DNA of 33,113 nucleotides from a virus. Taxonomy: Duplodnaviria; Heunggongvirae; Uroviricota; Caudoviricetes. How positions within the stretch are numbered: position 1 is the first letter of the stretch; every line of letters starts with the position of its first letter. Positions 16,601-19,600 of the stretch are shown here, one piece after another. A program made the position numbers. The stretch is from the IMG/VR virus record IMGVR_UViG_2879770953_000003; one strand, 5' to 3'.

Positions 16601-19600
16601 TTTTTTTTGGGAATGCGATCAAGCGATTGATAGGTAAAATCGATTATGTCAGGACCCCCGAAAACCCCGCCACGCCTGCATTTGATACGAGGCAATCCCT
16701 CAAAGCGTCCCGTTAAAGACGCCAAAAAAACCGCTAAAAAGGACGAAAAAGGTCTCCCTAAAATTCCGCAGCATTTAGGGGCGCAGGGAAAGTACTGGTT
16801 CAGGCGAATGGCGGAAGAGCTGAATGCGGAAGGGATCATTTCTCAGCTTGATGCGCGTGCACTCGAGTTGCTGGTGGAAGCCTACACCGAATACCGGCAT
16901 CACTGCGAAACCCTCGATGTTGAGGGTTATACCTACCGCACGGAAACGCAGAACGGTGATGTGCTGATTAAGGCACACCCGGCTGCTGCGATGAAAGCGG
17001 ATGCCTGGAAGCGGATCCGGGCGATGCTTGCAGAATTTGGTATGTCACCGGCAAGCCGGGTGAAAGTAAATATCGCCGGACCGGATGATGTTGATCCGCT
17101 GGCAGAACTTTTAAAAGCGAGAGACTGATGGCAAAAGTGGCTGACGGGATCCGCTACGCCGAACGTGTTGTTGCAGGAGAAATTGTCGCTGGTGAATTTG
17201 TCCGTCTGGCCTGCCAGCGTTTTCTTGATGATCTGAAGTACGGCGAAGAGTGGGGGATTTATTTCAGTGAACCCCGTGCGCAGCACATCCTGAATTTCTA
17301 CAAATTTGTGCCCCATGTAAAAGGGGCGCTGGCAGGTCAGCCCATTGAGTTGATGGACTGGCATGTGTTTATCCTCATTAATATTTTTGGTTTTGTCATT
17401 CCGCTGGTGAATGAAGAGACCGGGGAAGTTGTCATGCGCAGCGATGGCAGCGGACGCCCGGTGATGGTGCGCCGTTTCCGGACAGCGTACAACGAAGTCG
17501 CCCGTAAAAACGCAAAATCAACCCTGTCATCAGGTATCGGTCTGTATATGACGGGGGCAGATGGTGAAGGCGGGGCTGAGGTGTATTCAGCCGCAACCAC
17601 GCGTGACCAGGCCAGAATCGTGTTTGAAGACGCCAAAAATATGGTCAGAAAAGCCCGGTCGACACTCGGGCGGTTGTTTGATTTCAACAAGCTGGCGATT
17701 TATCAGGAGCAGAGCGCATCAAAATTTGAACCGCTTTCTTCAGATGCAAACAACCTGGATGGTCTGAACATCCACTGCGCCATTATTGATGAGCTGCATG
17801 CACATAAAACCCGTGACGTGTGGGACGTTCTGGAAACGGCAACCGGTGCCCGTCTGCAGTCCCTTTTATTTGGTATCACCACGGCAGGGTTTAACAAGGA
17901 AGGGATTTGTTACGAGCAGCGTGATTACGCCATCAAGGTATTGCGTGGCTATAACAGCGATGTGGAGGGCGCGGTAAAAGACGACTCCTACTTTGCGATT
18001 ATTTACACCCTCGATGAGGGAGATGATCCGTTTGATGAAACGGTCTGGCAGAAAGCGAATCCCGGCCTGGGCATCTGTAAACGCTGGGATGATCTGCGTC
18101 GCCTGGCGAAAAAAGCGAAAGAACAGGTCTCTGCGCGGGTGAATTTTTTTACCAAACACATGAATGTGTGGGTAACAGCAGAGTCTGCCTGGATGGACAT
18201 GATTAAGTGGGAGAAGTGCGAATACATTGCCCCACGACATGAGCTGAAAACGTATCCCATGTGGGTCGGCGTTGACCTTGCTCATAAGATTGATATCTGT
18301 GCGGCGGCAAAACTCTGGCGAACGGATAACGGGCATGTTCATGCCGATTTTAAATTCTGGCTTCCGGAAGGACGGCTGGAACGATGCTCGCGGCAGCAGG
18401 CAGAACTTTACCGGAAGTGGGCGGAGATGGATAAGCTGATTCTGACGGATGGTGATGTTATCGATCATGCTCAGATAAAAAGTGACTTACTGGAATGGAT
18501 TGGCGGTGAAAACCTGAGGGAACTGGGATTTGACCCGTGGAGCGCAATGCAGTTCAGTCTGGCGCTGGCTGAAGAAGGTATACCGCTGGTGGAAGTTCCG
18601 CAGACGGTCCGCAATCTGTCAGAGGCCATGAAGGAAACGGAATCACTGGTCTATGCCGGGCGTTTCCATCACAGTAATCACCCGGTCATGAACTGGATGA
18701 TGTCTAACGTTACGGTGAAACCGGACAAAAACGACAATATCTTCCCGAACAAATCCACGCCGGAAGCCAAAATCGACGGCCCTGTTGCGATGTTTACAGC
18801 AATGAGCCGGATGCTGGTCAATGGCGGTGAACCGGAGCCGGATCTGTCTGAGCATCTGGTCAGCGTTGGTATTCGCTCGCTTTAACCGAGGTCATTATGT
18901 TTCTGATAATTCTCACGCCACTGGCGGGCGTGCTGGGGGCGCTTTTGCTGTCGTATGGCACATGGCTGATTTATCCCCCGGCAGGTTTTGTTGTTGCCGG
19001 GGCGCTGTGTCTGTGCTGGTCGTGGCTGGTTGCGCGTTATCTCGATCGCGGTCACCGGGTCGCCTCCGGAGGTGAGTAATGTTTTTCCAGGGGCTTTTTC
19101 AACGCAAAAATAACACCCCCGTCACAACGCCCGGGATGCTTGCGGAAGAGCTGGGGTTGTCATACGACACCTATACCGGAAAGCGGATCAGCAGCCAGCG
19201 GGCCATGCGGCTGACGGCGGTCTATTCCTGCGTCAGGGTGCTGGCTGAGTCTGTTGGTATGCTGCCCTGCAGTCTCTACAAAATCAGCGGCACCCTTAAA
19301 ACACGGGCGGTGGATGAACGGCTGCATAAGCTGATTTCAGCAAAACCCAATGGCTACATGACGCCGCAGGAATTCTGGGAGCTGGTTATCGTCTGCCTGT
19401 GTCTGCGGGGGAATTTTTACGCTTACAAGGTGAAGGCGCTGGGGGAAGTTGTGGAGCTTCTTCCGATAGATCCGGGCTGTGTGGAACCGAAGCTGAACAG
19501 CCAGTGGCAGCCGGTTTATCAGGTGACGTTTCCGGATGGTTCCGTGGATGTGTTGACCCAGGATGAAATCTGGCATGTGCGCACCCTGACGCTGGACGGA

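Follow-up and report, generated by a model that had tools for sequence, protein, structure and literature searches.

In phage phiP27, the gene L37, annotated 'putative integral membrane protein', is placed between the terminase and portal genes, and in the cryptic prophage e14 of E. coli K-12 the gene ymfR lies between terminase and portal pseudogenes (aaaE, beeE). The same gene was found in SfI, SfII, SfIV, ST64B, PY54 and phiKO2, and PHROGs groups these proteins as family 502 ('membrane protein'), which it files under the category 'moron, auxiliary metabolic gene and host takeover'. Elsewhere among phages, portal assembly of T4 on the inner membrane requires the phage chaperone gp40 and the host protein YidC (PMC4493910). 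Here, we analyzed a small gene at positions 18897-19079 of the IMG/VR record IMGVR_UViG_2879770953_000003, a stretch of 33,113 nt from a virus of the Caudoviricetes, the whole of which is called the window in the following. We found this to be a genuine gene of a late operon, belonging to the YmfR / phiP27-L37 / PHROG 502 family. It is therefore already catalogued, as a member of an annotated family whose function is uncharacterised; a search of the literature on ymfR, phiP27 L37, ST64B sb3, phiKO2 gp3 and terminase-portal membrane proteins found no functional study.

We compared the window protein with the described members of the family. The match to PHROG 502 covered residues 1-54 with E=8.4e-25, and identity to the E. 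coli, Shigella and phiP27 copies ranged from 73 to 98%, phiP27 L37 and an E. coli homologue labelled 'protein YmfR' in RefSeq both standing at 73%. Length is the same, the slot between the terminase large subunit (TerL) and the portal is the same, and nothing essential differs here. In a large protein collection, 135 homologues were recovered at E<=0.01, nearly all of 60 aa and with hosts belonging to Escherichia, Shigella, Salmonella, Citrobacter, Klebsiella, Enterobacter, Yersinia, Hafnia, Serratia and Lelliottia. A profile search against 1.84 billion representatives gave 450 clusters at E<=1e-3; among the 150 of these clusters that were listed, almost all have 45-90 aa, and the members share the motif G..G..L.SYGAWLxYxPAGFIxxG. 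The family motif YGAWLxYxPAGF is present in the window protein with T for A. The PHROG scan of the small protein returned only families 502, 7105, 12448 and 33409, and no model matched it in Pfam (E<=0.1) or NCBIfam. In four GenBank records (ON470580.1, ON470603.1, ON470584.1 and PQ793804.1; locus L002, hits H44-H58) a homologue is labelled 'head-tail joining protein W'. Lambda gpW is a soluble protein, and what the two have in common is the map position (between terminase A and portal B in lambda); the window protein is a hydrophobic hairpin. We rejected the gpW identity and consider the label a positional mis-annotation, because gpW was not matched in Pfam and the protein has two hydrophobic helices, with a grand average of hydropathy (GRAVY) of 1.05.

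The open reading frame (ORF) starts with the ATG at 18897, stops with the TAA at 19077-19079 and encodes a product of 60 aa, in exact agreement with the coordinates and length given by the first-pass annotation of this DNA. The gene and its immediate surroundings are organized as follows:

17128..18885, plus strand: TerL, the upstream neighbour, with TerL_ATPase and TerL_nuclease domains
18888..18891, plus strand: Shine-Dalgarno sequence GAGG of the small gene, within the gap that follows TerL, 5 nt 5' of the ATG
18897..19079, plus strand: YmfR-family gene, 60 codons and TAA, predicted two-helix inner-membrane hairpin
19077..19081, plus strand: TAATG stop/start overlap between the small gene and the portal gene, the last base of TAA being the first base of the portal ATG
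19079..20320, plus strand: portal gene (Phage_portal PF04860, E=1.6e-108), the downstream neighbour, co-inherited with the small gene

Eleven nucleotides separate the TerL stop codon (18883-18885) from the ATG of the small gene, and the junction TAAC[CT]GAGG..ATTATG is kept among relatives. The GAGG confirms that the gene has a ribosome-binding site of its own, as had been stated. The portal Shine-Dalgarno sequence, GGAGG (19068-19072), lies inside the last codons of the small ORF. Translational coupling to the portal gene had also been claimed: the TAATG overlap is indeed present, and from it the coupling proper is inferred. No significant hairpin masking the portal Shine-Dalgarno sequence was found when the junctions of three relatives were folded and compared with shuffled sequences (z-scores -0.55, -0.46 and +0.68).

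The pattern of substitution was analyzed in 47 distinct alleles of 183 nt, in which 28, 16 and 43 variable sites fall at codon positions 1, 2 and 3, respectively. The median pairwise ratio of nonsynonymous to synonymous substitution rates (dN/dS) was 0.39 for the whole gene, 0.26 for the membrane core and 0.54 for the tail, and the two shifted frames gave 0.85 and 1.2. When the calculation was repeated on both strands, the annotated frame gave 0.25; one antisense frame also had a low dN/dS, which we rejected as a codon-phase artefact since this frame contains three stops. No Rfam match was found in 18500-19500. When IMG/VR loci were collected by the portal alone (portal at least 88% identical), an intact copy was present in 80 of 80. 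Absence or disruption in close relatives, named in advance as the finding that would speak against the gene, was thus not observed, and this conservation shows that the gene is real. Overall, judged by its codon pattern, the small ORF is a real gene under purifying selection in the annotated frame only.

The DNA-packaging module had been considered an unusual place for a membrane protein. A scan blind to genomic context, in which IMG/VR was searched with a degenerate DNA pattern for the family motif alone, gave 120 loci, and in all 120 the motif lay within a small ORF (90 distinct proteins). Among these motif-selected loci, the downstream neighbour was Phage_portal in 78 of 80, with a lambda-type portal in one more, and the upstream neighbour was TerL in 62 of 75. 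In 66 of the 79 distinct family members, the following ORF begins at -1 or -4 as counted from the stop codon. With the same pattern applied to one genome per species, we obtained 43 loci, and the portal came next in almost all of them. They belong to Alpha-, Beta- and Gammaproteobacteria (Enterobacterales, Halopseudomonas, Lysobacterales, Methylobacterium, Rhizobium, Azospirillum, Xanthobacter, Sulfitobacter, Reyranella and Roseateles), with several in Actinomycetota (Planobispora, Solirubrobacteraceae and Mycobacteriales). The TerL-portal slot is the normal place for the YmfR family, in four bacterial classes, and the position in the window is therefore not unusual. Conservation of the gene, which the first-pass annotation had proposed to check across HK97/P27-like phages, was found in phiP27, SfI, SfII, SfIV, ST64B, PY54 and phiKO2. 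Presence of the gene is independent of tail type, since myoviruses (SfII, phiP27-like) and siphoviruses (PY54, phiKO2) both carry it, and of the envelope type of the host (diderm and monoderm).

It had further been suggested that the gene could be a moron, such as a superinfection-exclusion factor. Small inner-membrane phage proteins often act in superinfection exclusion, HK97 gp15 and T4 Imm being of this type, and proteins of this type are prophage-expressed or early, with their own signals and a sporadic distribution. The window protein resembles them as a small phage-encoded inner-membrane protein; it differs from them in that its gene has neither its own signals nor a sporadic presence. 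In the region 16000-22500 we counted 3 promoter-like sites for 3.9 expected, and the only one near the small gene (18882-18910) overlaps its start codon, so that a transcript would begin inside the ORF. The terminator-like matches were weak, and no credible promoter or terminator of its own was found for the gene. A terminator-like hairpin at 19060-19075, named 'terminator' in the SfII record, was rejected as no more stable than shuffled sequences and unconserved. The G+C content of the small ORF is 0.578, for 0.578-0.583 at the start of the portal gene, and no PADLOC defence model matched the protein at E<=1.

As described in E. coli K-12 treated with an SOS-inducing siderophore-ampicillin conjugate, e14 ymfR is upregulated with a log2 fold change of 4.5 together with ymfJ, ymfL, ymfM, ymfQ, tfaP and xisE (PMC10012262), a behaviour that fits a part of the induced prophage programme. 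These results bear on whether the protein is a superinfection-exclusion or defence factor of the moron type, acting against the entry of incoming phage DNA at the inner membrane. The PHROGs category of family 502 and the persistence of an intact gene in decayed prophages, e14 and the window among them, are in its favour. Against it stand the missing own promoter and terminator, the composition without shift, the start overlap with the portal in most members, a synteny strictly kept in different phyla and with both tail types (myovirus and siphovirus), the lineage-stable presence, the absence of a PADLOC match and the induction of the e14 copy with lytic genes. We consider this explanation distinctly unlikely, and nothing points to superinfection exclusion by the small protein. 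With no signals of its own, the G+C content of the portal gene and a presence that is stable within lineages, the gene does not behave as the moron that had been proposed, and the 'moron' category of the PHROG 502 family in public records is put in question.

We then considered how widely HK97-type head modules carry such a gene. We sampled phage portals from IMG/VR through a portal C-terminal motif common to the HK97, D3 and window portals and clustered them at 60% identity; this is a small sample, and both the motif and the order of the database influenced what entered it. Among the 46 portal lineages obtained, 23 have a large ORF abutting the portal, 10 a YmfR-family gene, 2 another small two-helix gene and 11 something else or nothing. 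In HK97 itself, TerL directly abuts the portal, with no gene between. A two-helix gene is thus found in about a quarter of the sampled HK97-type portal lineages. Clusters mixing presence and absence numbered none at 90% portal identity and one at 60%. The YmfR-type gene can therefore be described as an accessory of HK97-type head modules that is common and stable within lineages, and not as a universal core gene.

Other ORFs occupy the same slot. In the prophage of E. coli SCU-116, a 53-aa ORF of family phrog_7105, a remote homologue of PHROG 502 (E=1.3e-6), overlaps both neighbours and encodes two hydrophobic helices. In Pseudomonas phage D3, orf3 (54 aa; 2107..2271 in locus L206), located between TerL and a PF04860 portal, likewise overlaps both neighbours and has two hydrophobic helices, with homology to the YmfR family that is undetectable (hidden Markov model score -0.7). 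D3 orf3 belongs to a second two-helix family of about 54 aa (MNxxHxFI..., ending in FIRRGL), which was observed in this slot in five further loci (L377, L395, L402, L420 and L431). In four loci of HK97-type portal lineages (L340, L442, L350 and L430), the slot is taken by a small ORF of about 60-95 aa that looks soluble and lacks a hydrophobic helix; some of these ORFs may be spurious frames.

Since two-helix ORFs that are non-homologous or, for phrog_7105, only remotely homologous take the same slot, 'any hairpin' may suffice there. This would agree with a role in gene expression, in which the short cistron sets portal translation by coupling, or in which its co-translational insertion draws mRNA and nascent portal to the membrane, with the peptide serving only as a membrane-targeting signal. 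The conserved stop/start overlap and the location of the portal Shine-Dalgarno sequence inside the ORF are also expected from such a role. However, conservation across phyla at particular positions (G, W, YPP, G and others) goes far beyond the needs of a generic signal, no significant hairpin masks the Shine-Dalgarno sequence, and HK97-like lineages couple TerL straight to the portal. Taken together, we judge an expression role very unlikely.

The linkage of the small gene to its two neighbours was then compared. The TerL of close relatives falls into two groups, about 99% and about 37% identical to that of the window, and YmfR and the portal stay linked throughout. Conversely, in E. coli SCU-116 a 99%-identical TerL is followed by the different 53-aa two-helix ORF and by a portal that is 28% identical. 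From the distance matrices of 42 diverse loci, the partial correlation between small protein and portal was r = 0.62 with TerL controlled, and that between small protein and TerL was r = 0.07 with the portal controlled; 0 of 500 permutations reached the observed distance correlation. In three pairs of loci, portal and small protein are near-identical and TerL differs by 42-61%. These comparisons show that the small gene is inherited and diverges as a unit with the portal, TerL being exchangeable.

In seven loci (L038, L016, L045, L048, L078, L083 and L084), a 241-aa C-terminal fragment of the window-type TerL (99% identical) lies directly 5' of the small gene; 5' of the fragment come about 500 nt of AT-rich non-coding DNA and then an unrelated complete TerL, 31% identical (in L038, 1075..2736 for the complete gene and 3264..3989 for the fragment). 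These loci look like prophage-prophage junctions or recombinants. The 31%-identical TerL, 1.3 kb upstream of the small gene, was accordingly rejected as a partner, the truncated TerL of the usual type being the one directly before the small gene.

The hydropathy profile of the protein has two peaks, at residues ~2-24 and 31-46, with a dip at IYPPAG. An AlphaFold2 model built with 19 homologues is a helix-turn-helix (helices 2-25 and 27-57) with a mean predicted local distance difference test score of 79. Both agree with the two hydrophobic helices noticed at first reading. No sequence relative of the small protein was found in the PDB, and a fold search with the model returned generic helical hairpins only (E>5). 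The predicted parts are as follows:

18900..18968, plus strand: predicted transmembrane helix 1, residues 2-24, rich in Gly; close relatives all keep G11, G14 and G21
18969..18986, plus strand: tight turn IYPPAG (residues 25-30), the best-conserved part of the family, predicted to face the periplasm or exterior
18987..19034, plus strand: predicted transmembrane helix 2 (residues 31-46), with G35, C38, W41, S42 and W43 invariant in close relatives
19035..19076, plus strand: basic, poorly conserved cytoplasmic tail (residues 47-60), whose final codons hold the portal Shine-Dalgarno sequence

Conservation peaks around the turn and at glycines spaced through both helices (G11, G14, G21, G30 and G35). 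The conserved GG[EDK] at the C-terminal end coincides with the portal ribosome-binding site, and the end of the tail is thus partly fixed by it. Among 82 family members, Lys or Arg is found in the turn of 2% and in the termini of 95%; the N-terminal part carries 2.0 positive charges on average. By the positive-inside rule, this distribution predicts that both ends are cytoplasmic and that the YPPAG turn points outward. The profile search also gave two tandem duplications, P0148 (122 aa) and P0173 (102 aa), with four helices and two copies of the motif GAWL..PAG. These four-helix members suggest that the hairpins act at least as dimers, or oligomerise.

The predicted architecture is that of class II holins such as the S21 pinholin, with which the protein shares its size, two helices, a predicted N-in/C-in topology and a charged tail. 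The protein could therefore be a lysis-related late membrane protein (holin-, pinholin- or antiholin-like) that depolarises the membrane or tunes the timing of lysis, perhaps coupling lysis to head assembly; expression with the late genes, a helix 1 rich in Gly and Ala and the oligomers suggested by the tandem duplicates would fit. By contrast with class II holins, the small gene is not adjacent to an endolysin gene, which it never adjoined in about 200 loci, being beside the portal instead, and no holin family of Pfam or PHROGs was matched. Moreover, it varies together with the portal and is not freely exchanged, and phiP27 and the window both have a separate lysis cassette upstream, which in the window consists of:

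15099.. (endolysin), 15629.. (Rz) and 15861.. (embedded Rz1-like ORF): window lysis genes, about 3 kb upstream of the small gene

We regard a role in lysis as unlikely. The linkage to the portal and the location in the head module could also be expected from a component of the virion, at the portal or in the head, that is inserted into the recipient membrane for DNA entry. A strongly hydrophobic N-in/C-in hairpin should enter the membrane of the producing cell and not capsids, the protein is present in no solved phage structure, and no proteomic report of it was found; an ejection component is accordingly the least credible of the explanations considered, and an extremely improbable one.

The explanation that we put forward, tentatively and by analogy with T4 gp40, is that the protein may be a membrane tether for portal assembly; we hold it plausible, though short of probable. 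The gene is most likely transcribed with the packaging and head genes and translated from its own GAGG, with the TAATG positioning ribosomes that terminate on the small ORF at the portal start codon. The hairpin of about 60 aa is predicted to insert into the cytoplasmic membrane, its two ends on the cytoplasmic side and the YPPAG turn on the outer face. Probably in oligomeric form, it would work together with the portal at the inner membrane. There, it could tether or concentrate new portal subunits and thereby lead to a single dodecameric ring from which the procapsid is nucleated, the task of gp40 in T4. The likeness is that of a working analogy: gp40, with YidC and the gp20 portal, is a small phage membrane protein aiding the portal ring, and the corresponding role of the YmfR family is a proposal. 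Genes 40 and 20 of T4 are not known to be neighbours. A sequence relation to gp40 was not apparent: none of the PHROG families matched by the small protein carries a head or portal chaperone annotation, no direct comparison with gp40 having been made.

Several points weigh against a portal tether. No experiment and no structural or co-evolutionary contact ties the small protein to the portal, and adjacency alone would also yield the co-inheritance of the two genes. The conserved residues lie in the membrane and in the outer turn, and the cytoplasmic parts, which would be needed for contact with the portal, are short and variable. The gene is missing from HK97 and from about half of the HK97-type portal lineages sampled and is therefore not essential to the portal fold, and no N-terminal motif of the portal that separates gene-carrying from gene-less lineages was found. 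Finally, the protein has no similarity to a solved structure or to a characterised family.

More generally, YmfR hairpins and the non-homologous two-helix ORFs of the slot might all be membrane tethers or nucleators of the portal, membrane-initiated assembly of procapsids being common in HK97-like phages; this extension we consider doubtful. If it were true, membrane-initiated procapsid assembly, so far a peculiarity of T4, would be widespread in HK97-like phages of Proteobacteria and Actinomycetota. If the family acted on portal assembly or packaging at the membrane, a membrane step would be added to the best-studied capsid assembly pathway. As a single locus, the gene in the window is an ordinary sequence feature; the family as a whole, a 60-aa hairpin welded to the portal gene in two host phyla, may merit attention, and it would offer an easy genetic target in temperate phages of Shigella, Salmonella and E. 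coli.

The copy in the window was also examined in the context of its prophage. The gene is intact, with Ala10 in place of the Val of at least 90% of close relatives; this residue possibly reflects relaxed constraint in a dead prophage. Thr22 of the window allele is a shared polymorphism. The window is a decayed prophage of Shigella / enteroinvasive E. coli type, ridden with insertion sequences (IS), and contains the following further features:

1..1044, minus strand: tyrosine integrase, at the left end of the window
1601..2437, minus strand: Peptidase_M90 gene, after the integrase, which may be host DNA
~3226-4446 and ~13069-14289: two IS3-family copies (OrfA and rve transposase)
5517-6284 and 28319-29086: two IS1-sized copies of 768 nt, in inverted orientation and 100% complementary
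11217..15123: broken IS66-family element between the Q antiterminator and lysis genes, holding one IS3-family copy
20262..22028: fusion of prohead protease (Peptidase_S78) and major capsid protein (Phage_capsid) in a 588-aa ORF, with the junction at ~20923-20931
30160..31803, minus strand: IpaH-type type III effector gene at the end of the prophage remnant, with LRR_TTSS and NEL E3 ligase domains

The protease-capsid fusion was caused by the loss of about 160 nt that relatives retain, and a separate protease ORF of 226-231 aa follows the portal directly in 80 of 80 related loci. The fusion is probably an inactivating lesion of the decaying prophage, and the window copy of the small gene is probably no longer used, or unlikely to be in its normal role. 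The IpaH-type gene points to the chromosome of Shigella or enteroinvasive E. coli and, unlike the small membrane gene, is real moron-like cargo. The tape-measure gene is the last of the tail module, which ends at the second IS1-sized copy.

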